A stretch of DNA of 63,000 nucleotides, the filler included, from Collodictyon triciliatum (lineage: Eukaryota), in the NCBI GenBank assembly GCA_043381765.1. It is 13 parts of 13 records of this genome, joined end to end, with 100 filler letters (N's around TTAATTAATTAA, not from the genome) between each part and the next. Parts side by side here need not be neighbours in the genome. Positions count along the whole stretch, not along the records: positions 51,123 to 55,844 come from JBHJMP010005824.1; 12 more parts are not named here. One strand, given 5' to 3'. The notes below the pieces were generated by a model, which saw only the letters and a program-made list of their open reading frames with translations, was not told the origin of the DNA and did not search any database. Numbering within the stretch: the stretch's first letter is position 1; each line of letters opens with the position of its first letter. Position numbers and translations under genes: made by a program. This document shows, in pieces, positions 19,836 to 59,209 of the stretch.

Positions 19836-22800
19836 TTGTCCTATACTCTACCACCAAAAGTTAGTCCTGAAGATTTAAGGAAGGCCGCTAAAGAATTTCA
19901 AGAGTTGTATTGGAATACTAGAAAAGAAAAAGAAACAACTTACTCAAAAGAAGAATTTATTAAATTAGAGAAATTATATGAAAAGGGCTTTGGTGAAAAA
20001 ATGCCAAAAGAAGTAGATACATTGGATGAATTATCAAAAGAACTATTAGAAGAACCATTTCTACTTCCGTATCACATTACTGACTCGGACCCGGAACCGG
20101 TATTTCAATCAAATCGTAAAACATACACTAAAGACGATCTGGAAACTATTGAGAAATTTATAGAAGTAAATAAAGAAGAAGAAAATAATCCAAACATGCC
20201 AAGTTGGAAATATATATTGGCCTTTAAAACAGACCCTCCAGTAGGTATGACTCCTGAACAAATGGAACAGGCTGTAGAAGATGAGGTGTATAAAGCTGAA
20301 GATCCAGATAGACGTAGAAAGTACAATCAAAAACAAGTTATTACTTTAGAAAAAATGATAGACGTCATATTAAAAGATAATCCTAATGATTCCAGTCTTC
20401 AATTGGCAGTGCTAAAATATGAAGTGGCATTTTCTATGAAACCTCCAGATGGCATGACTAAAACAGAAATGAATAATGATACAGAAGAAAGATGGCGACG
20501 AATCGAAGAAGAACGTAAGAAAGAAGCGGATGAAGAAGAAGATAAGGGACGATTGGATTCAAAAATAGATGAGCTAAATGCGTATTTTGCACAATTTGAC
20601 GATGTAATAGAAAGCCCCGAAGGAGAGAAAACATTGCAAAAAATGGCAGACGAGGTTAAACAAGAAATTGGAAATAAAAAAAGAGTATTTGACAATCGGA
20701 TACCTTCAGAAAAAAAATGCGCGTGGGCAGAGAGTAGCATCTAAAGTTTACACAGGTATGAATCTTTGCTTTAAAGAGTGGTATAAACACAGAGGGTTTA
20801 GTTATAAAGATGACGTTCCAAAAGATTTTGGTGACGAAAAGGAATTTGAGTTTATGGATTACATGGACAATGAATTTGACGAAGACGTGCGATTATATCT
20901 TTATAGCTTTGCTGCCAACGAAGAATTAGAATATACAGAAGAAGAAATTTTGGACTTGATATGGTGGAATATTGCGTATTATAGATTTATTGCTCTGCTT
21001 GAAAAAGAAGTACAAAACAAACAAGAGGCAGATGCACGTGCAAAAGGAGCTTTTGAAAGTAACGCCGCGCGAGAAAGACAATTAAAACAGATTGAAGAAG
21101 AAAAAGAAAAAAAAAGATAGCTAGCCCTTGAAAAAAAAAACGGGCTGAAGAGGAACTGGCTGAAAAGTTAAGAAAAGGACAAGAAGTGCAAAGACTTAAA
21201 CTTAATAAAGAAATTTTGCAGGAATATCACAGAAGATATTTACAAAATACGGACGAAACTATTGCCCAAGACCCACAGGGAGCAAGAAGAGTCAATGATG
21301 CATTGATTTCGTTTGCAACACCAGCAACAGTAATAAACGAGGAAGAACTATTTAAACAAATTGTAGATTCTCTCAGTCAGGGTGAGTTAATTGAATTTGG
21401 TAATAAATTGGCCACAGATCTACAAATATATGTCAGAGATTTTTTGACGCAAAACGCCCCTGAACAAACAAATGAAGGTGTTGTTAAATTTTATAACTCA
21501 TTGCCACCCGAGCTACAAGAATACATTAAACAGCTCAGAGATTTCAAATTAGAATGTGAAAAGGTAATGCAAACTAGAGCAGAGGTTGTTAAAACAACAG
21601 AATTAGCACTAATCCCAACCGCGGAACTAAATGAAGCTTATAAGGAATTGATAGACCGTGAAGAAAAAGATCTTGAAGCAATAATGAACGATTCACTTAA
21701 TGCCAAGTTAAACGAATTTGATGATATAAATTTTAGTAATTTACTTGCACGGTCAATTGTAAGCATGATACAAACAAGTGCGCAGTTATCTCGTGCGGCT
21801 TTATCACAGTCCATGCAGAATTTGTTTACTACTTTTGAGCGCTCACAATATTTTAATCAATCCAATTATGCCGCTAGGGCACAGAGAACATCTAGCATTA
21901 TATTTGGGCCTCAAGTCCTGGGAACGGCATCACCAAACACTACATTTAATCCTGACCAAACAACGATGAGTATGTTAGGCTCGATATTAACTCCTGCACA
22001 GTCTTTTCTAAATCAAAGCATACAACAGCTGGATCAATCAGGAACATTTACACAGGCACAGACCGCGTCTATGCTCAACGAATCTACTATAGAATTAAAT
22101 CCTGATGCATCAAATATGAGTGCAGGGTCATTTATGGCAAACACTCCTATAGCACAAAGCATTACAAACACGCCTACATATACTCAGCGTAGCGGATTTG
22201 GTACAAAGAGTACAACTGATTTTAAGAGCCCATTACCAGTTAGTAAAACTGCGAGAGAATTATTTGGTCCAGCACAAACACCAAACAGAACTAATGTTCC
22301 CGATACTAGCAAGAGTATCAGTATCACCAACATAACACAAAAATTAGCTGATATGAGCAATAGATTAAATCAAATAAAAGAACAAAATGAAACAAATAAA
22401 ATAGAAAATATTGAAACTCAAAAAATATCTGAAGATTTGAATCTAGATAAAGATTTAACACCTGCATCTCTAGAAAAACAAGCAGATGAATTAATTAAAA
22501 AATTAGCAGAACACGTAGAGCTTTTACAACAAAAACTAGATAATGCATATGAACAAATCGATACATTGGCTATTGCGATGAGTAATCAAAACGAATATAT
22601 ACAAGAACTTCAAGACACTGTTAATACTGCGTCTCAACTGGCAACTGGCTTGATGCAAGACAAAGAAATTTATCAAAATAAATTACAGGACTTGGGCGTG
22701 CAAATGGATAACGAACGTGCCCGCTTTGAGGAACAACGTGCAGCTCTCAACAAGATTATACCAGGCAACTATAGCGTCGGATTTGATACAACAAACATTT

Positions 22801-24459
22801 CAGTTGCACCTTCAGTAACAAAGACACCAAAAACACCAAAGATACAAGAAACAAAAGAAACTAAATCATAGTTCTAGTTTAAGCACAGCAGAGTTAGTAA
22901 ATTGAAGAGACAATTTAAAAAAAGTTCAGGATAGTTATAAGCAAAAGAGACAAGCACTAAATGCACAAATACAACTGAATAGAATTCGGGAATTAGAAAG
23001 TCAAGTACAAACTTTAATATTGTTACAGGAGGCACCCGACACTAAAGATGTCGAAATAGAAGATCTTAAAGAACAGATAAATAATTTAAATGCATTATTA
23101 AATCTTGAAAATCCTATTGTTATTGAACAAACTCAAACAATACAAGATTTACAGAATTTCATTGGAATATTACAAGCCCGAGGAAAAGAACTTGCTGATA
23201 CAGCTACTTTTTATTATAACGCTGCGTTTCCTGCAGTTCCCACAGATGAACCAGGGACACCAGTAGGAAGAGCTCCTCGCGAGGATACTCCCCAGAGTGC
23301 ACAACGACAAATTGCTGTAAGACAAGCCAGTCCAGGGGCCCCACCTAGTCCTTTTATGGTACCTGGCCCTTGGCAATTTGTTGATGATTTTCCAGCTCTA
23401 CCTCCGGCTGCACCTCAAAACCTGCAAGCAGACCCTAGAATACAGGTATTACCTACTAGCCTTCCTCGCCCCACTGCAGCTATGGTACTTGCTCAAAGTC
23501 CCGTTCAACCTCAACGTCAACAACAACCACTTGGTCTGCCACCTCTGCCACCTGTGTCTCCGGTTGTTCCTGGAAGATTGGCTGCAGCAAGAGCCATGGC
23601 TGGGGCTGTTTTTAATGTTGGCGCTGGCTTAGCCCAAGCTGCAGTTGGCGCTGGCGCTGGCATTTTCCAGGCGGCAGGTGATGCAGTACGAGGAAATATT
23701 TTCGGTGGTAATAATATGGCGGCAAACAGAAGAGTTTCAATGCAAGCAGCAACACCAAGTCCTATAATGGCAGCAGTACCATTATTTCCTCCCGGTAGGG
23801 GCGGCGGCGGTGGAGGCGGTGGCGGTGGAGGCGGTAGTCAACAGCCAATATTTAACCCAATGCGTCCTCAAGTATCGGACAGCCGTGAATACGGCAATCA
23901 ATCACGATTTGCTAGAAAAGTATCGAGGTATATCGAACAGGGTAATCCAGCAAGAGCTAATGATTATGGTATAGTAGATAAGCAAACTTTTGAAGCAGCC
24001 ATGAGAGAATTTAATATTGAATATGTCGATTTAACTCCTGACACTAGTGCGCTTATGGACATACTAGAATTATTTTTTGAAGGCAACATTCCAGGCCTAC
24101 AAAGCGCATTAAAAACATACCGTAAAGAAGGGTCATGGCCTCTCAAGTACAAGCCGAAATACGGAGACACGACTGACCAGAAACTGAGAAACGTCGCTTT
24201 TCTCCCCCAGCAAAACCTGGGCAGGGTCGTCAACTCTGACCTCGGTACCATCATTATTCCGGGCCAATCAAATTACAACATCCGACGAGAGGGGCTCAAT
24301 TACGTCGTCTACGGCGGGGGCCAGAAGCGCGCATTCGGCTCGGCCAGAGACGCCCAGTTCTTTGTCAGCTCCGGTGCATTTGGCCGCAAATCTTACGGGC
24401 CTGTCACAGAGCGTGTCTTTGGAACACCTATTAAGAATCTTTCACAGGCTATTTATTAA
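19836..24459 (+). pseudogene. Giant acidic/coiled-coil/Pro-Gly-rich protein gene (~1500 codons) split into four ORFs
   Basis: ORFs 19836-20744, 20668-21120, 21186-22871 and 23020-24459 are bridged by coding-like sequence (KR*LALEKK/RAEEELAEKLRKGQEVQ; KQKKLNHSSSLSTAELVN*RDNLKKVQDSY); shifts lie near A-rich runs; no introns. Confidence 0.65.
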
Positions 24460-24488
24460 ACAATTGTTATTATAATAAAAATTGTTTA
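24457..24488. terminator. 32-bp AT-rich palindrome between convergent stop codons; candidate bidirectional hairpin 3'-end signal
   Basis: TAAACAATT-G-TTATTATAATAA-A-AATTGTTTA is self-complementary except for one G/A mismatch. Confidence 0.7.
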
Positions 24489-24489
24489 C

Positions 24490-26574
24490 TTATGGCTTGG
24501 ACCAGCCTGTTACTACCCACTTATTTAATGTTTTATGACACATAATTGTCCAGCATGACCCAATTGGAATATTTTTAGATTCGCCAGCATTGAAAGCTGT
24601 TTGTGTGCCATCGGACCACAAATTTACACTATCTGAAGAAAATTCTACTTGAGCAAAAGCACTTGCGAACCCACCCTGGTCAAGGTGTATAATTTTAATA
24701 GTCCATCCATCTGGAATAGTAGCAGTATTTGCAGACGGAAGCAATAATTTTGCGGTTACATTGTGTTGAGTAGGACGACTAATAAAATATATCGGAGGAC
24801 TATTAGTACCGAGAGTTATAACTCCTGACGTGTTATGGGTATCAAACTCTTGGATTGGGCATCTCGCTAGTTCAAAATGTCTATCAAATAAGCATCTATC
24901 AGGTCTAAAAATTACATTCCGAAGCGAATTGACAACAATACTTACAAAAAATTCTCCGCTAGCTGTTCCGCCTCTGATGCAATTTGTACTCGAAACAACT
25001 GTACCAAACCTAACTTCATTTCCCGCAGGTAATTCTACACAACTCGGAGCAATGTATCCACTCACGGTTAGATTATTTGTGATTGATGCGCTACCCGAAG
25101 AACTGAACCCGGTAGCTGAAACTGTTTCTGGGAAACTTGCATTGCTTGCCATCCAATGTGAAGTAATGTACCAGACATTATCAATAAATTCACAGTGATG
25201 AGTTGCGTCTTTTGATACAGTGGTTGCCGTAGAATGATTAGTTACTAGGCCCCCTTGATAAATTCGTAAAGTAACACCCGCAATTGGCGTAAACTGAAGA
25301 ACAGCGCCTGATAAATTGCTATTCGGCACAATATCAAATGACATTCCATTTGTAAAGCCAGAGCTAAGAAATCTTAATACCACAGGTGTAAAACCCCCCA
25401 TATCAACTATAACATTGTTACTAAATGTTGCGCCCAGGTCGAAAGTTTGACTGTTGGCAGTTACAGTAATTACATTGGTTGGTTGAATGATCTGTTGAGA
25501 TATTGTTAAATTGCCGTTGACAGTCGCTGCTGTATTTGAAACAGATAATGTATTTACACCCTGTGCACGAAGAGAAACGACATTACTGTTACAAACAACT
25601 CTATTGTCTCCACTACTAGCAAAGCGATACCCCGCTGTGTCTCCATCCGGTGCTTGAAATCTGGCATTAGTTGTCACTGTTTGAAAGTGATCATTAAAAT
25701 TCACTCCTATTCGCATTCGTTCAGTTCCGTCTGTGCTAAAATTTATCACATTGTCACTTCCATAGATACCTGATTGCGGTACCGTCGAGTCACCAAATAA
25801 AAGAGCTGGAGCAGCTGCCGATCCTGCTGTGTTTAAATTTAATTGGCCTGAGATTGTAGGAGTCACCGCGTTGGAAACAACATATTGGCTATTTTGAACA
25901 CTGACTGTTCCAGCCTCTATAAACAATCTTTGTCTTGTCCCTGATTGATTACCAACATTAAATCGCATAGTCCTTACATTTGAACCATCTTCTCCTAAAA
26001 CTATATTGACATTATCAAACCCTCTCAACGTACCAGGATCGGTTGAGAAAGTCAAGGGAACCGATAAAGTGCTACCATTTTGATCCCACGTTTGTCTTGC
26101 AACATTTCCAGTAATAATACCCATTACATTGGTCGATGAAAGACCATAAAGGCCTGTATTGCTGGCACCAATTCTTATACCTGATGAACTCCCAGACCCT
26201 GTCCGAATAATATCGATGGATGGATTATCAGTAAATGAATATGTGCCTGCACCCGTTGAATTTAAAATTTGACCTGTAGCTGATGGAGTCGGTACCTGGT
26301 TCACTGTATCCCAAAAAACTGATGTGCCATTTGTTTCTAGAAATTTTCCAGCTTGCCCGGCTTGTGGAGGAAGCTCTCCTTCAATTCCGGTATACTGATA
26401 ACCAGTTGCTGCATCATTTACTTCCAAAAATTTATTTGCATCGGCTGCCGTTATCGTTGGCAAAACGAAACTTGACTGAGTTGTATCTGTGTATTCACCA
26501 TTTGTCCCGTCTGTCACAAAACTATAATCATAAGGGTATCTACTTGAATTTGATCCGATTTCGTATGAAGTCAT
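24490..26574 (-). CDS. Viral fibre/receptor-binding protein, 694 aa, intact
   Basis: G/S/T/N-rich beta composition; phage tail-fibre-type repeats LPPQAGQAGKFLETNGTSVFW and GSAAAPALLF..SGIY..INFSTDGTERMRI; two head-like modules ending NVWYIT and NKWVVTG. Confidence 0.75.
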   Translation of the reverse strand: MTSYEIGSNSSRYPYDYSFVTDGTNGEYTDTTQSSFVLPTITAADANKFLEVNDAATGYQYTGIEGELPPQAGQAGKFLETNGTSVFWDTVNQVPTPSATGQILNSTGAGTYSFTDNPSIDIIRTGSGSSSGIRIGASNTGLYGLSSTNVMGIITGNVARQTWDQNGSTLSVPLTFSTDPGTLRGFDNVNIVLGEDGSNVRTMRFNVGNQSGTRQRLFIEAGTVSVQNSQYVVSNAVTPTISGQLNLNTAGSAAAPALLFGDSTVPQSGIYGSDNVINFSTDGTERMRIGVNFNDHFQTVTTNARFQAPDGDTAGYRFASSGDNRVVCNSNVVSLRAQGVNTLSVSNTAATVNGNLTISQQIIQPTNVITVTANSQTFDLGATFSNNVIVDMGGFTPVVLRFLSSGFTNGMSFDIVPNSNLSGAVLQFTPIAGVTLRIYQGGLVTNHSTATTVSKDATHHCEFIDNVWYITSHWMASNASFPETVSATGFSSSGSASITNNLTVSGYIAPSCVELPAGNEVRFGTVVSSTNCIRGGTASGEFFVSIVVNSLRNVIFRPDRCLFDRHFELARCPIQEFDTHNTSGVITLGTNSPPIYFISRPTQHNVTAKLLLPSANTATIPDGWTIKIIHLDQGGFASAFAQVEFSSDSVNLWSDGTQTAFNAGESKNIPIGSCWTIMCHKTLNKWVVTGWSKP

Positions 26575-27036: not shown

Positions 27037-30000
27037 CCCTCAGTCAACTTGGCGACAGGAATCGGCTCCAGTCCACTTTGCTTGGCAGACTTATGACAGA
27101 TACATTTATTAACCTTCCTCTCAATTCATTTTTTATGCAGAAAATAAACATATCCAAAAAAAATATTAAATGATGAATACCGTGCAAGATTCATGGGTAT
27201 GAATGGTCGATACAACCAGGGCAACATTAGCTGGCGTTTCTTTGGGCAACCAGGTCAGCAGATGCGGAGCTGGCGTTCCTTGCGACGGGTGGATTTGGTT
27301 GATGGCATCGATGAGGAAGACAAACTTCTCGTCCCTATAATACATAGTTTAATGTCAATTTTTTATTCGATTCTAGTATTTTAATTTCGATTTAAAAAAT
27401 AAATAATACATAAAAATTAAATTTTTACTTGTTTTTCTCCTGAATCATCTTCAGCAAGCCCTGGAGTCCCTCTTTTTCGTATTCTGGTGATAAAAAAAAA
27501 TAATAAATGCATGAAGAATTATACGATATTTGAATTAAAAAGATAAAAGTAAAATAAAATACAATACCAGCTTCTTCCTTCTTTTCCTCGACAAAGTTGG
27601 CAGAGTTTGCGACCAAAGTCCAAAAGCGAATCGAAACACTAAAATAAAAAAAATATTTTTAGAAAAACCAAAATAAAATGTCTGCAGCATATATTAAAAT
27701 TAGAAATAAAAAGAACGTACCTTTCCACGTAGTTGCTGAGATTGGTGCATCCGACAAAATGGAAAAAGACATGCAGCCCAGGATGCTTCAGCCCTTCGAA
27801 GTCTCTCGCTGTAGCAGCCATGAGTGACGACTTTCCAATCCCAGACTCGGCAGCAAGAACGATGATTTTGGATTTCTCGGTGTTCAGCTGATTCATGGCC
27901 TAATGAAAATAATTATTGATAAGAAAAGAATAGCAAAACATATTATTGTCATTTTTAATTAATTTATCTTTATCTTACTTGCTCCGTGATTGTCTTGAGA
28001 AGCTCCTTTCTTCCGCCAAACCCAGCCAGTCGATGCATCTTGAACTGGTGCTGCGCTTGGTCTTCAGGGTCTCTCACCTAGGATATAGTTATGTCAACAA
28101 AATGTAAATGAAATGAAATATATCTCACCAATCAATACTGATATACATTAAAAAAAATAAAATAAAAAATACAGTTTGCTTCCCAAAGTCACGCTCGATG
28201 GCGTAGGTGAGATGGTATGTCACAAAGTCCGAATACTCCTTCGCTCCCTTGTAGACAACATGCCCGAACTTGGCCTTGACTTTCCCTTTGAGCTCGTCCT
28301 GCCTCTTACGCTAAAAAAAACATTAAAAAAATATATGTCAAGAAATCAAATCATTAAATTAACGTAACATAATAAGATAAAAAAGAAAATTAAAGACTTT
28401 CTATCAATTTTTACCGCCTCTTCGTTTTCAGCTTGGAATAGCTTTCTTTCTTCCTCGCTCTTGGCATGTTCGACAGCATAGTGCTCATCGCGGAGGTAGA
28501 AGAAGGCGCGGCTGCATGCTGGTTTGTCAATCAGACAGGCATACTGAATCTGAACATGAATATATAATTTAGAGAATAATTTGTTAATTTTTCAATTATC
28601 ATTCATGAAAAGATAAAGAATAAAATATAGATATTCGCTTCACCTCGTATTCAGTCACACTCAGCCCAGGCATTCCGTCAATGAATGGGAAGCGGCTATT
28701 CGTTTCACTGCGCCATTCCACCCAGACGTCCTTCATGGTGGCATCAGGCTTGGTATTCAGCAGCTCCTCGAGGCGGGCTTGTTTATTCAGCTCCGTTTTG
28801 TTCTGGTCAGGAATCCAGCCGTAACGCGCACCGAGGGAACACACAAAGTATGGACACTTTCCGATAGAATCCAAGCAGCGAATCACAACCTTGAAAGTAA
28901 CAGGAGGAAATTGAAGCTCATTATTTTAGAAATTGCAGCATAATGAAAATTTTAAAAAATAACGAATTAATAATATTCTGATTACCCATCCCTCGCTACT
29001 GTCCACAGAAGTCAGTCCCCAGCGCAAATCGATAAAGACAAGGTCCACTCCCTTCGATTTCGCAAGTCTTTTCAACCTGACATTAAAAATTATATTGTAA
29101 GGAAAATAAAAACATCAAATTATCGTTCCTTATCATAAATTTATTATAAAAATATATTGAACTAACTCAGGGGCTCCATTCTTGAAAAACTCGTCTCTTT
29201 CTTTCTGCATGTCACGGAAGGTCGAGGAAAGAAAAACACGGATGACACGCTCGTCAAAGACGATGAGCGGCAATGGTGTTGGTGTCAGGTATCTTNNNNN
29301 NNNNNNNNNNNNNNNNNNNNNNNNNNNNNNNNNNNNNNNNNNNNNNNNNNNNNNNNNNNNNNNNNNNNNNNNNNNNNNNNNNNNNNNNNNNNNNNNNNNN
29401 NNNNNNNNNNNNNNNNNNNNNNNNNNNNNNNNNNNNNNNNNNNNNNNNNNNNNNNNNNNNNNNNNNNNNNNNNNNNNNNNNNNNNNNNNNNNNNNNNNNN
29501 NNNNNNNNNNNNNNNNNNNNNNNNNNNNNNNNNNNNNNNNNNNNNNNNNNNNNNNNNNNNNNNNNNNNNNNNNNNNNNNNNNNNNNNNNNNNNNNNNNNN
29601 NNNNNNNNNNNNNNNNNNNNNNNNNNNNNNNNNNNNNNNNNNNNNNNNNNNNNNNNNNNNNNNNNNNNNNNNNNNNNNNNNNNATTGGAAATTATATTTC
29701 GGCATGGTTCAAAAAATTAAAAAAAAAAACCTTAAATATGAAAGATTAAAAGGAGGTGTATTTTGTTACCCCAAGACTTCCCAAATGGCCAACACTTTGC
29801 CCAATAAGATACTGGAGCATTGCATTGAGCAAATCTGTAAGAATATTTATATGTCAGTTACCCATACAAAACAAATGGATGATATATGAAAAATTCCAAA
29901 ATCAGTTCCCATTAAAACAAATAAAGCAAACCAGCGTAATGGGCCTGAGAAGCAACAGCCTCATAACGCATATTCAATTTCAGAAACCAATCAACAATGA

Positions 30001-52893: not shown

Positions 52894-54833
52894 ATGAAGA
52901 AAAGAAAACGTCTTGGGTCTGAGAAACTAAAGTATGTAAAACCACCTTATCGAAATGTAAAAACAAATCTAAAGTCGATTGTAAATAATGCGGATGACTA
53001 TGGCAAAATCAACGATGCGGTTTTATTGTGTCATAATTTGGTTACCGAAACTTATCTGTTTGCAAGGTGGTACATATTGAAATCACAACTCCCAACAATC
53101 GATGAAATGTTTTTTTTATTTTATTTTTTGTACGCTTTAAAGACTGTCGGAATTGTTTCACAAGATAGACCCGCATTTTTAAAACAACCAGATATAAGTA
53201 AAGATATGACGACTTTTTATCTCCATGATTTTCGATTCCTTTTGTCCCGAAAAGAACGATTTCTGTTGGTTAGAGTGTCTCGTGTATCACCGTACCTGGC
53301 GAAGCAAATGTTAACAGCTTATCATAATAACATTAAGGAACATTTTGTAAAGAGGTTACTGCGCTTTATAAATCAAATAGTACCTAAATATGATATTATT
53401 ACGGAACCTATTAAAAAAAAAAGCCAGAGCTACGAAAGTTAAAAAAGCCATCTTCAAGAAACTCGAAATACTGGAACAATATAAAGGATGAGCTGCAATG
53501 CATTTGCATCATATCATTTCCAGCGATATTGTAAAAACTATCGAATATAACGTCAAAGTCAATCCAAATAAGTGCATACTATGTCTGATTTACATGAATC
53601 GCATTTTTGAGGACACCGGAACCAAACTGTTTCAACCAATCCCTACAAGAACTACCGATATACCATTTTATATTAATCTAGATATTGCATGTTTGATATA
53701 TATATTAGTATCAACTGGAAAAACACTATTAAAGTAGAATATGTCAGGATGCAAAGATACCCTGTGGGATGAGTTCTTTGAAATGAAGAAGAGAGTCTTT
53801 CATCAAAGAGACTACAATTTTAAATACATGATACAAACAGGCGGCTTGGCGGTGTCATTATTGTTTGAAAAGAAAGGTATTTCAAATTCAAAATCCAAAT
53901 ATAATACCCCCCAAGAATATGTTTACATAGATGAACTTTCCGAAGGGCAGTTATCTTTATTAGCAAAAAAAATTGTTGGAGCGGACGCAGGCAAGTTTGA
54001 TTTGGTTTACATGGTGGATGAGACAGGTAAGAAATTACGTTACACGGCACACCAAAGAAGACGTGATAGCAAATCTCTAAAAAATCACAAAATACTCTTG
54101 CGCGAGAAAAAAGAAAAGTACAATGCTCCAGGGATATGGATGGAAACAGATTTACAGAATGCTGTTTCTTTTGGCCTCAGGACTTTTGAAGAGAATCAAC
54201 AGTTTGAGACATCAAGATTATCTTTAATCGATTTAGAGACAGAATCGAGTAAACATAATTCATGCACGGTCGACTATGAAAAATAGAAAATATGTATCTA
54301 TGAAATCAAGTTACCAGATAGAATTATCCAGATTTTATGAATAAGTGACTTTTCGAAAGATGAGATGGAGAAAGTATGCTAATACGAAAAGAAGTGAACA
54401 ATTGGTCATGGACAGAATCGAAAAGGCATTTGGCATGGATGTTGTACTGCCGTATGGAGACTGTAGCAGAAAATCTCCAATGAAACATTTTATGACAATA
54501 ATCGGAAGAGGATTACGAAAAATACTATCCAAACGTTTTGAACCAGTTATTGCAGATGAATTTAGAACCTCCAAGATGTGCTACAACGCGAATAAGAACT
54601 GGAATATATGACACTGAAAGGAAATTCAAAAAAAAGTGTATAGATGTCACATATGTAAAGAATGCAATCGCTCAGAAAGCAACCAAAGTGTATTCTTGAC
54701 AATGGACTTTAACAGCGGTAAAAATATACTCAAGAAAGGTCTTTTAACCCTTCAAAAAATGCATACACCTTCCTCTAAAAAACAGGCTGTCGGGTCTTTC
54801 CTGGCAGCCTACACCACTACACAACCTTTGTGA
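52894..54833 (+). pseudogene. Fanzor1 (TnpB-related RNA-guided RuvC endonuclease), disrupted
   Basis: N-terminal VKTNLKSIV..YLFARWY..NNIKEHF; IQTGGLAVSLLF; RuvC-I IVGADAG (Asp codon 53984); FY..FRKMRW..Y; YGD..GRGLRK; RuvC-II DEFRTSKMC (Glu codon 54558); CxxC zinc-finger half CKEC; RuvC-III TMDFNSGKNI (Asp codon 54705); several in-frame stops and frameshifts. Confidence 0.9.
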
Positions 54834-54907
54834 AAAAAAGTGGTGAGACCTTGGATACTAGTGCACCAGATTTACCATTCGAAAGATTGGTATACTCCTT
54901 CTAGTAT
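54784..54907 (+). ncRNA. Candidate Fanzor omega-RNA scaffold
   Basis: Three consecutive hairpins overlapping and following the ORF end: AGGCTGTCGGG/CCTGGCAGCCT; CACCACT+CACAA/TTGTG+AGTGGTG; ATACTAG..TACCATTC-GAAA-GATTGGTA..CTAGTAT. Confidence 0.6.
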
Positions 54908-55369
54908 TTAAATAATGTTGTACTCAACTAAAAAAAAAGCATGATAAATCGGACGAACTCACGAAAGTGGAGATGCCATAAGACAACTCTGTGGCATCTT
55001 TTTTTCTTTTTTTTTTTAATAACAAAAGATACGATAACGAAAAGGGCAAATAAAATTATATAAAAAAGACAAGTACAACCAGAATATGGATTTATTGGTC
55101 GTTTAAGTTTGGGACTGAACAAAAAAATCTGCATGTTTCTCATTTATAATTATAATTTTGTATAATATATATGTATTTTGGAATCTTGGAATCTTAATAA
55201 TAAACATAACACCTAGGTTTTCTCGAGAAAAAAGCTTGCGATACAGCATGACAAATTGTCGAATAAAAATCAACGTCAAAGTGTAAAAACAAACACAAAA
55301 AAAACGTCAAAATATTAAAAAAAAAAAAAAAAAGTATAGAAATGTGTTACGGAGAATCAAAAATATAAA

Positions 55370-55844
55370 ATCAAGACGCTCTCTAAGCCGCCTACAGAGG
55401 GAGGACTGGGACTCATAACGCCTGGTATTGCATGGACATCGCTCACGATGAGATGGTGGGCAGATATGCTTACCCATCCGAAAGGATTCTGGCAGCGTGG
55501 AATGTGGCACCTCATCCATCGCATATGCCCGAACTTCAAGGCACAGCTCTGTGAGAGCAGAATCCCATCACCGCCACCTAACACTCCTGAACCGCTACTA
55601 GCGCGGTGGAAGGTTCTGTATGAAAACTGTGAAATGTGCGAGTCTACCCAACTACAAGCTGTTACGGGGCCAGCTTTGCTGGGATAGAGCAAAAGGCTTC
55701 TGTATCATCAAGTCGAGAGAAGGAAGCAGCTCCTTCATCCTGTAACAAGTCACATTCCAAAAGGATGGGAGCTTCGCACCGTCGAAAAATGCAACGATAT
55801 TTCACTCCTCGAATGCAACCCCAACCACAGCCGTCCTGAACAAC
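55370..55844 (+). mobile_element. L1/Tx1-like non-LTR retrotransposon ORF2 fragment (post-RT region), 5'-truncated
   Basis: IKTLSKPPTEGGLGLITP..LTMRWW, the PxxxGGLGL motif that follows RT in L1-clade ORF2; later in-frame stop. Confidence 0.65.
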
Positions 55845-55944
55845 NNNNNNNNNNNNNNNNNNNNNNNNNNNNNNNNNNNNNNNNNNNNTTAATTAATTAA
55901 NNNNNNNNNNNNNNNNNNNNNNNNNNNNNNNNNNNNNNNNNNNN

Positions 55945-56951
55945 TCACACTGATGATTTGCTTTGCCGCGGGCGCGCTTCTGGGCGATGCCTTCTTCCAT
56001 CTCATTCCCGAAACCTTCCACCTGATTGAAGAAGGCAGCCACGGGGACGAGCATCACGACGAACACGACGACCACAACGACACCATCGCAGACGCGGGTC
56101 CGGATGCCGGGGGCCGGCGGGTCTTTGGCGTGGGGCTGAGTGCCGTTGCGAATGCGGTGCGGGTGGCTGTGCGGGCGGGAGACGAGGACGCAGACCACGA
56201 TGACCACGGCCATGGAGAAGAAGAACAAGAGGAAGAAGAAGACGACCACGACCACGCCGCTTCCATTGTCCCGATGCTCTGTCTGATGTTCGGCTTCTTC
56301 ATCTTCTTCCTGCTCGAGACGTATCTGCATTCGCGCTGCCACGACCACGGCCTGGAAAACTCCCCAAACACAGCTCGTGTTGGGCACAGCGACGAGGCCG
56401 ATAATGCGTCGCATTCGCACTCCCACTCGCATCCCCATGCGAATCCCATTGCCCACTTGGAGGACGGAATCCATCCAAAGGTCGAGAACGTCCTCGAGGC
56501 GCCGCCTGTCGGGCTCATGATGATTCTCTCGGATGCGCTGCATAACTTTGTGGACGGCCTGGCCATCGGCTCGGCCTTCAGCTCCAGCTTCAACACGGGC
56601 ATTGCCACAAGTGTGGCCATCATAGCCCACGAGGTCCCCGCTGAGTTGGGCGAGATGGCTGTTCTCTTGTCGTCCGGATACTCGAAGCTCCAGGCTGTCT
56701 GTCTGAATCTGCTCAGTGGCTCGACTTCGCTTCTGGGTGCCGTTATTGGGGTGGTTGTTGGGGAAAACATCGACAATGCGGAGCAGTATATTCTGCCGAT
56801 AGTTGCGGGCGGGTTCATCTATATCTCGTGTGTCGACTTGCTCTCGGGGATTCTCAGCTCCCATGGAACGTCGCCCATACTCTTGCGGTGGAAGCTGCTT
56901 GCCATCTGGGTCGGCATTGCAATTATGATTGGTATCACTTATCTTGAATAA
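55945..56951 (+). CDS. ZIP (SLC39, LIV-1-like) metal transporter, N-terminal ~39 aa absent from contig start
   Basis: FAAGALLGDAFFHLIPE, His/Asp-rich loops, DALHNFVDGLAIG, HEVPAELGE, AGGFIYISCVDLL. Confidence 0.95.
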
Positions 56952-58060: not shown

Positions 58061-59209
58061 CTATTCGAGGTAGGATATACCAATCATGACACCTATGCCG
58101 ACCCAAATCGCCAGAAGCTTCCACTTTGTAGACACTGGGGAGGCCTCATGGGAGTTCAATATGCCGGACAACAGGTCGACACAGGATATGTAGATAAAGC
58201 CACCAGCTACAATAGGAAGGATGTAAAGCTCTGCATTCTCTATGTTGTCACCAATCACAATTCCAATAATCGTGCCAAGGATGGCAGTTGTGCCACTGAG
58301 CAGATTCAAGGTTACGGCCTGCATCTTGGAATAGCCAGAAGAGAGCAACACTGCCATCTCCCCGAGTTCGGCGGGAATCTCGTGTGCGACAATCGCAACA
58401 GTGGTTGCTATCCCAGTGTTGAAGCTTGAGCTGAAAGCCGAGCCGATGGCCAATCCATCCACAAAGTTGTGGAGTCCGTCGGACAGAATCATCATCAAGC
58501 CGATGGGCGGTGCCTTGAGGATGTCCTCGACTTGGCCTTTCTCATGGTCTCTCTCTGTGTATGGGTGGAAAGGTGGGTGGGCATGGGAAATCAAACCACC
58601 TGTGGCGTCGACTTTTTCGTCAGCCCTTAGTGGGCGCCGTTCAGCTTCCGGGCTCTCCATGCCGTGGTCATGGCACCGGGAATGGAGGTATGTCTCCAAG
58701 AGGAAGAACATAAAGAAACCAAACATCAAGCAGAGCATTGGGACAATGCTGTTTGAGTGGCTGTGCTCCTCTTCGTCATCCTCCTCCTCGTGGTCGTGGT
58801 CATGGTCATGGTCGTCTTCTGATTTAAACCCAGTTGTCCTCAAGACAGCGTGAGCAGCTGCACTTACTCCCAGAGCCAACTTGTGCTGACCTAAACCAGC
58901 AGCAGCCTGTGTGAGGCTTATGCCAGGACTGGGACTTGGGTCTGCGATGGTGTCGTTGTGGTCGTGGTCGTGGTCGTGGTCATGGTCGTGGTCATGGCTA
59001 TCTTCTTCAATCAAGTGGAAGGTCTCTGGAATGAGATGGAAGAACGTATCTCCAAGGAGCGCCCCAGCGGCGAAGCAAATCATCAAGGTAAAGACAGTCT
59101 TCTTGTATTCAGAGCCCAGAAGCGGAAGAAGGGCAAGTCCTACAAGAGAGAGGACGCTCACAATTACACTAGCGACGATTGCAGAGACCCATTCCTCTGT
59201 GTTGGCCAT
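58061..59209 (-). CDS. ZIP (SLC39, LIV-1-like) metal transporter, complete, intronless
   Basis: 382 aa; same motifs with (HD)n tracts; close paralogue of 55945-56951. Confidence 0.95.
   Translation of the reverse strand: MANTEEWVSAIVASVIVSVLSLVGLALLPLLGSEYKKTVFTLMICFAAGALLGDTFFHLIPETFHLIEEDSHDHDHDHDHDHDHNDTIADPSPSPGISLTQAAAGLGQHKLALGVSAAAHAVLRTTGFKSEDDHDHDHDHEEEDDEEEHSHSNSIVPMLCLMFGFFMFFLLETYLHSRCHDHGMESPEAERRPLRADEKVDATGGLISHAHPPFHPYTERDHEKGQVEDILKAPPIGLMMILSDGLHNFVDGLAIGSAFSSSFNTGIATTVAIVAHEIPAELGEMAVLLSSGYSKMQAVTLNLLSGTTAILGTIIGIVIGDNIENAELYILPIVAGGFIYISCVDLLSGILNSHEASPVSTKWKLLAIWVGIGVMIGISYLE

Follow-up and report, generated by a model that had tools for sequence, protein, structure and literature searches.

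A putative omega-RNA scaffold of three hairpins at the 3' end of a decayed Fanzor1 gene in Collodictyon triciliatum

The window analyzed here is a stretch of 63,000 nucleotides, filler included, that joins 13 parts of the Collodictyon triciliatum genome (GCA_043381765.1), and the locus described below lies in the part that spans positions 51,123 to 55,844 (record JBHJMP010005824.1). On the plus strand at 52894–54833 we found a decayed Fanzor1 gene, which is collinear, in three frames, with residues 1–643 of the intact homologue P0003 (648 amino acids). A tblastn comparison with P0003 gave three collinear pieces showing 59.8, 52.7, and 58.7% identity, and the ORF fragments upstream of the hairpins described below belong to one gene. 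The gene is interrupted by five in-frame stop codons (at 53489, 53738, 54342, 54612, and 54618) and by two frameshifts, one near 53405–53421 and the other near 54283–54288. No intact ORF of the about 600–700 amino acids expected of a Fanzor1 is present, and the copy is a pseudogene. P0003 is the closest intact relative that we found, with 54% identity to the middle piece. Neighboring genes are cellular, encoding an NHL-repeat protein and two ZIP transporters, and microsatellites lie close by. The host is a cellular eukaryote.

Over the WED/REC/RuvC core, the decayed gene is similar in sequence to Fanzor1 nucleases that have been solved experimentally. With phmmer, piece P0002 matched PpFz1 of Parasitella parasitica at an E value of 5.8e-9 and SpuFz1 of Spizellomyces punctatus at 4.3e-6, and piece P0001 matched PpFz1 at 7e-6. 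A profile built from 17 homologues matched PpFz1 (3.6e-57), SpuFz1 (4.7e-55), and GtFz1 (5.3e-44), all three of which are solved Fanzor1 proteins. In the alignment with P0003, GADAGK, DEFRTSK, and MDFNSG retain their D, E, and D residues, respectively, and we take these motifs to be RuvC-I, RuvC-II, and RuvC-III in that order. In place of CCNC, the first CxxC pair reads CYNA, damaged by a frameshifted stretch that contains stop codons. Pfam searches with the ORF pieces and P0003 returned nothing significant, and the OrfB_Zn_ribbon and TNB domains went undetected in the pieces from the window. Judged by its sequence, the upstream gene is a Fanzor1, and it is dead.

Three hairpins lie at the 3' end of this gene. 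Hairpin S1 (54784–54810, plus strand) consists of 11 base pairs, including two G-U pairs, closed by the loop TCTTT, and is situated in the coding tail (KQAVGSFLAA). Hairpin S2 (54812–54845, plus strand) has an outer stem of 7 base pairs, CACCACT/AGTGGTG, around an inner stem of 5 base pairs, CACAA/TTGTG, and the 3' arm of the inner stem contains the Fanzor1 stop codon (54831–54833). In hairpin S3 (54851–54911, plus strand), ATACTAG (54855–54861) pairs with CTAGTAT (54901–54907) and encloses a hairpin with a GAAA loop at 54873–54892; the outer stem can be extended by T-A, T-A, G-U, and G-U pairs to 54851/54911. The first-pass annotation had placed the stems within 54784–54907, and both the sequence and the folds agree with it to the base. 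The alternative pairing that it had proposed between TGGTG (54841–54845) and CACCA (54864–54868) is possible. It had also claimed that the hairpins overlap or follow the 3' end of the nuclease ORF, and they do so on the same strand: they span 54784–54911, and their first part covers the last 50 bases of the pseudogene.

The fold is stronger than that of shuffled sequence, and it is specific to one strand. For the plus strand of 54784–54930, the MFE was –49.6 kcal/mol, compared with –30.0 ± 3.2 kcal/mol for 200 dinucleotide shuffles (z of –6.05), none of which was as good; this comparison with shuffled controls had been proposed as a check of the original annotation, and the structure withstood it. 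The reverse complement of the same segment gave a z of –1.12, with 25 of 200 shuffles folding as well. Folded alone, S1 reached –19.2 kcal/mol, a value that 0 of 300 mononucleotide shuffles matched, and S2 (–9.6 kcal/mol) and S3 (–15.7 kcal/mol) were each equaled by 2 of 300. In a local scan of 268 windows of 147 nucleotides on both strands between 51.2 and 58 kb, the scan window at the candidate had a z of –5.04, and the only lower values came from three windows of microsatellite sequence near 51.8 kb. Four of the 40 pairs in the three-hairpin fold are G-U, and these account for the weaker fold of the other strand; the asymmetry and the G-U pairs together point to an RNA transcribed from the plus strand. 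Rfam gave no match at E values of up to 1 over positions 52000–56000.

Contigs from four public sequencing runs (X1–X4; the six listed runs, none of them recorded as RNA, had shares of 0.05–0.08) were matched to positions 52800–55100 at 80% likeness. The resulting cover consists of contigs and is uninformative on expression, RNA ends, and strand, and uncovered parts were not counted except for the fade-out common to the runs. The four runs contributed 367, 124, 35, and 87 matching pieces, 80–99% alike, which together span 52800–54878 and thereby the whole gene. On the left side, contigs of X2, X3, and X4 cease to match at 52803, 52804, 52806, and 52813, and cover continues rightward from there; from these loose ends the left boundary of the element is placed at 52803–52813, with the left end and 5' leader occupying 52804–52893 on the plus strand. 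On the right side, depth in the bin 54879–54955 was 4.1, 1.1, 4.7, and 2.2 in the four runs, compared with 103, 15.8, 12, and 10.1 in the preceding bin, and it was zero from 54956 onward in all four. One X3 contig aligned as far as 54900. The gene is thus part of an element of about 2.1 kb (approximately 52804–54915) that is present in many diverged copies. Given that cover fades within 54879–54955, the hairpins lie at the right end of the element. At a bin resolution of 77 nucleotides, all four runs accord with the earlier placement of the hairpins at the element end. Many positions in the window differ from all contigs, and most contigs have one extra base behind 54587, as would fit a copy in the window that has decayed privately. 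We found no second copy within the window by blastn and no transposase inside the element.

The sequence and the fall in depth together place the right end of the element provisionally at 54912–54915 on the plus strand, and two readings of the junction are possible. The element may run from 52810 to 54912 with TA flanks and a weak inverted similarity of 12 nucleotides, or it may end at 54915, bounded by the direct repeat TGTTG(T) at 52799–52804 and 54916–54921; both are predictions, and neither is statistically strong. A search for an inverted repeat between the left and right ends with blastn-short returned only poly-A words, and a local alignment of the reverse-complemented left end with the right end was matched by 205 of 500 shuffles. 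The 3' end of the scaffold is predicted to lie somewhere in 54907–54915, and under either junction reading we infer that the first guide base would be at about 54913–54916. On the basis of this boundary and the known arrangement of Fanzor and TnpB elements, the candidate guide segment is 54913–54936 on the plus strand, with an uncertainty of about 10 nucleotides in its start. The guide start originally proposed, 54906, falls inside the last stem, and an element end at 54912–54915 probably shifts the guide 6–10 bases to the right. Global alignments to the covariance models R1 and R3 described below both end at 54906, and neither is significant.

A scan of metagenomes and IMG/VR with an alignment of homologues recovered 160 loci whose proteins are 37–47% identical to P0003; giant-virus MAGs account for many of these loci. 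Scans with P0003 and with a fragment from the window yielded no closer relatives among 53 and 175 pattern matches, respectively, in contigs of prokaryotic genomes, and only relatives of 45–46% identity in viral contigs. In 151 of 158 loci, the stop codon is followed at a distance of about 70 nucleotides by the motif GGTGTA. Column identity drops from about 90% to 30–40% directly after GGTGTAAAA (116 unique of 145 segments), and near-identical scaffolds are followed by unrelated flanks, as in L008 and L086. For the 10 loci closest to P0003 we wrote a structure by hand, comprising 40 pairs in seven helices. It begins with a 5' hairpin, continues with a two-part hairpin, and ends in a helix that closes over a pair of inner hairpins. 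Across these 10 loci the 40 pairs were 89% paired, compared with 41–46% when slid, changes on both sides occurred at 20 pairs, and none of 500 shuffles reached this result; RNAalifold by itself found 23 pairs, 12 of them compensatory. The RNA of these relatives is about 125–135 nucleotides long, and its last approximately 30 nucleotides are also the right terminal inverted repeat (TIR), TACACC...GGTGTA, with TA at both junctions. A TIR match at 24 or more of 40 positions was found in 54 unique loci of the 134 examined. In L002, the interval that separates the Fanzor gene from the left repeat encodes a DDE_3 transposase with an HTH domain; association of Fanzor with Mariner/Tc1 elements is known. 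The relatives therefore carry a covarying RNA at the 3' end of the ORF, and this RNA ends at the transposon end.

The candidate in the window is comparable to the RNA of these elements (L001–L169) in several respects. At 124–128 nucleotides, with its last helix ending 74–78 nucleotides after the stop codon, it has the same position and length, the same overlap with the ORF end, and a last helix at the element end. The order of modules is also similar, with a 5' hairpin and a two-part hairpin followed by a closing helix over one or more inner hairpins. It differs in having one inner hairpin rather than two and in lacking the GGTGTA end, a detectable TIR, and a transposase. Among the protein relatives whose DNA was available, none is closer than these elements, at 45–47% identity at best.

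No such likeness was apparent at the level of sequence or of covariance models. A blastn search against the 160 loci gave nothing. Covariance model R1, which recovered 19 of 20 loci of the family at E values of up to 0.014 in a control, scored the candidate at 7.0 bits (E of 0.5, at 54802–54906), below a match at 52806–52867 on the minus strand (E of 0.31); in this non-significant alignment, S2 of the window is placed against the stem S1 that the relatives' RNA forms. Model R2 had no match on the candidate, and its best hits, at 54887–55049 on the minus strand (E of 0.006) and 53068–53202 on the plus strand (E of 0.016), were discounted because they rest on A/T runs. Model R3, built from the handmade structure of 40 pairs, gave 1.8 bits (E of 4.6, seventh of 14). 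A resemblance by eye of 54892–54923 to the relatives' TIR, in both orientations, was dropped because the alignment and shuffle tests given above were null, as was an HMM of that TIR, which had no match near 54.9 kb among 25 hits at E values of up to 100. By position and size, the RNA in the window is the same as that of the relatives; by sequence or covariance model it is not. Given the lack of a match at either level, of a TIR, and of a transposase, we do not file it in the relatives' RNA family; our claim is that it probably works as their RNA does, irrespective of family membership.

The arrangement at the locus also corresponds to that of characterized systems. As described in the sections concerned of Saito et al. 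2023 (PMC10432273) and Xu et al. 2024 (PMC11423790), the omega-RNAs of SpuFz1, PpFz1, and GtFz1 likewise lie on the gene strand and, either overlapping the ORF 3' end or beginning after it, extend to the right end of the transposon, with the guide at the 3' side, and their scaffolds consist of a first stem-loop and one to three more of variable length, which is comparable with the window. The protein in the window is only distantly related to these (E values of 5.8e-9 and 7e-6) and its gene is dead, and the RNAs are likened by the descriptions that these sections provide. The account of Fz1 omega-RNAs in Xu et al. 2024 (PMC11423790) has SL1 followed by one to three stem-loops of freely variable length, such that divergence beyond recognition at a protein identity of about 45% is unsurprising. 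According to the parts of Jiang et al. 2023 (PMC10530073) that deal with it, the guide RNA of Fanzor either borders on the right end and the TIR or overlaps with them, and in the relevant parts of this paper and of PMC11423790 an omega-RNA of this sort is present in every characterized Fanzor1. TnpB omega-RNAs (IS200/IS605 and IS607) and the Fanzor2 "fRNA" of ApmFNuc, as presented in those parts of Jiang et al. 2023, share the same logic of a scaffold at the right end, a guide taken from the flank, and a TAM. TnpB and ApmFNuc belong to a different clade, and the gene in the window differs in the absence of Pfam OrfB_Zn_ribbon or TNB domains from its pieces, in its eukaryotic host, and in an N-terminal basic stretch.

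Taken together, these findings suggest that 54784 to about 54911 is probably the omega-RNA scaffold, or the relic of one, of a Fanzor1 element of about 2.1 kb that is non-autonomous and has a dead nuclease gene in this copy. The original proposal of an omega-RNA is upheld in part, by the Fanzor1 gene and its overlap with the hairpins, by the strand-specific fold, by the right boundary, and by a length and distance like those of the relatives; it receives no backing from covariance models R1 and R3 (E of 0.5 and 4.6) or from R2, which did not match. The plus strand would be transcribed through the 3' end of the gene, and the three hairpins would serve as a protein-binding scaffold whose last stem closes at the right end of the transposon. 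Roughly 15–21 bases of the flanking DNA that follows would then act as the guide, and a Fanzor1 protein would be directed to a matching unoccupied site beside a TAM. Given that the gene is dead, any function requires a paralogue, and the protein would necessarily come from an intact one. Within this scheme, we infer the production of the RNA, its binding by the protein, the exact end of the scaffold, and the guide.

The hairpins might instead be subterminal structures that operate at the level of DNA at the right end of the transposon, for example binding sites or hairpins used by a transposase supplied in trans, rather than a scaffold for a guide RNA. Their location within about 130 nucleotides of the right boundary of the element would suit such a role, and in the relatives the last approximately 30 nucleotides of the 3' module are indeed also the TIR used by the DDE_3 transposase. 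A structure required in DNA is harder to reconcile with a fold that is so much weaker on the other strand, and neither a matching inverted repeat at the left end nor a match to the relatives' TIR profile was detected here; we thus consider this explanation distinctly unlikely. Given that both roles coexist in the relatives, it is also compatible with the omega-RNA reading.

It is unlikely, although somewhat easier to entertain, that the stretch is a decayed remnant whose structure is due to chance or acts at the level of the mRNA, for instance by serving the 3' end or the stability of the Fanzor transcript, with no guide function in this lineage. The lack of significant homology to the relatives' omega-RNA under R1–R3 is what such a remnant would be expected to show, and the gene copy, a pseudogene, carries at least seven disabling lesions. 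Three independent hairpins that each surpass shuffled sequence, and that jointly do so at a z of about –6, speak against chance, and the position, length, and strand are those of the relatives' RNA; to the extent covered by the cited descriptions, such an RNA also accompanies every characterized Fanzor1. A different question is whether an omega-RNA scaffold at this locus would adopt the MFE fold at all. GGTCT (54793–54797) could pair with AGACC (54846–54850) to form an outer stem like S1 of the relatives, replacing hairpin S1 and moving the start to near 54793. By eye, GTCTTTC, GAAAAAGT, AGACC, and GATTT(T)ACC occur in the same order as in the relatives' consensus, and R1 places S2 of the window on the relatives' S1. 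These similarities are short and not significant (for the right end, 86 of 300 shuffles were as good), and the hairpin S1 of 11 base pairs is by far the most stable of the single hairpins, so that this register appears very improbable.

The other copies of the element bear on the conservation of the hairpins. In X1, depth falls from 259 in the bin 54725–54801 to 103 in the bin 54802–54878, indicating that in many copies the likeness is lower across S2 and S3 than it is across the gene; this fall weighs somewhat against strong conservation of these two hairpins. Two diverged copies hint at stems preserved with altered sequence, each hint coming from a single contig read by eye. An X1 contig that breaks off at 54822 retains the 5' arm of S2 and has a 3' arm that would pair with CACTAC in that arm, in a shifted register, and an X3 contig that breaks off at 54877 retains ACCA/TGGT as the base of the inner hairpin, under a different top, together with the CTTCTAGT arm.

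The three-hairpin stretch is most likely an ordinary further example of a known system. If the omega-RNA reading is true, it would contribute a further architecture of Fanzor1 omega-RNA, namely a compact scaffold about 125 nucleotides long from a lineage only distantly related to the characterized ones, and it would connect a family in a eukaryotic genome with a large family of Fanzor1 transposons that insert at TA in giant viruses. The known picture of Fanzor function is unchanged, and the copy in the window is unable to act alone. A bolder view, which is tentative and on balance rather unlikely, would see in the element a previously undescribed lineage of Fanzor1 from a freshwater eukaryote (no protein found exceeds 54% identity to it) that is sister to the Tc1/mariner-type Fanzor1 elements abundant in giant viruses. 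Its compact omega-RNA of three hairpins would have been remodeled, with a single inner hairpin rather than two and with neither a recognizable TIR nor a transposase; the scaffold would have stayed intact in dead copies by acting in trans with a few intact paralogues, and the pseudogenes would amount to a distributed guide library.

As a minor observation on the left end of the element, the reverse complement of 52808–52826 matches a linker motif of the relatives at 16 of 19 positions, as did 3 of 300 shuffles; the motif is found in 1 of 138 of the relatives' own left ends.

A large family of Fanzor1 elements was observed in giant-virus MAGs and in freshwater and marine metagenomes, at loci L001–L169, which encode Fanzor1 proteins related to that of the window element (for example, L002:1638-4953). 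Elements of this family are bounded by terminal inverted repeats (TIRs) of approximately 30 nt with the form TACACC...GGTGTA and with TA at the junctions, and they carry a covarying omega-RNA of approximately 130 nt, the 3' part of which is the right TIR. The L002 element contains a DDE_3 and HTH transposase (Tc1/mariner/IS630-type) in divergent placement, and in most loci other than L002 the left TIR is separated from the Fanzor start by just 410–490 nt.

At the left end of the window element, positions 52808-52826 on the minus strand match the linker motif of the relatives' omega-RNA, inverted, at 16 of 19 positions, with 3 of 300 shuffles scoring as well. This site was also the top match of R1, a covariance model of the relatives' omega-RNA, with an E value of 0.31. 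The relatives themselves carried the linker motif at their own left ends in only 1 of 138 cases.

At 54583-54593, where the nuclease has its first zinc-finger CxxC, the window differs from nearly all contigs of the four public runs, which have one extra base behind 54587 as well as two substitutions. Judged from this comparison of sequences, the frameshift at 54583-54593 is private to the window copy.

Approximately 55 nt past the right end, outside the multi-copy element and with no run-contig cover, lies a strong plus-strand hairpin followed by a long T run (54968-55012; –18.9 kcal/mol), for which none of 300 shuffles folded as well. This hairpin could be a terminator of read-through transcripts or part of the host locus.

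Long microsatellites at 51067-52078, interpreted as repeats of the (CAAA/GTTT)n-like and (AT)n/(AC)n-like types, produced spurious repeat ORFs and, in the local scan (268 windows of 147 nt on both strands, 51.2–58 kb), the lowest z-scores for folding. Paired N runs of 44 bases recur about every 4.8 kb across 4730-60760, with a single run of 388 bases at 29296-29683; the N runs in 4730-60760 look like masking rather than assembly gaps.

Four long ORFs in 19836-26574 (302, 561, 479, and 694 amino acids) gave no Pfam match at E values up to 0.001. Two ZIP zinc-transporter genes, at 55953-56951 on the plus strand (Pfam E value of 2.3e-51) and 58061-59209 on the minus strand (4.3e-59), are divergent to each other, and both of these genes as well as an NHL-repeat ORF at 49240-50295 are long and uninterrupted in the standard code.
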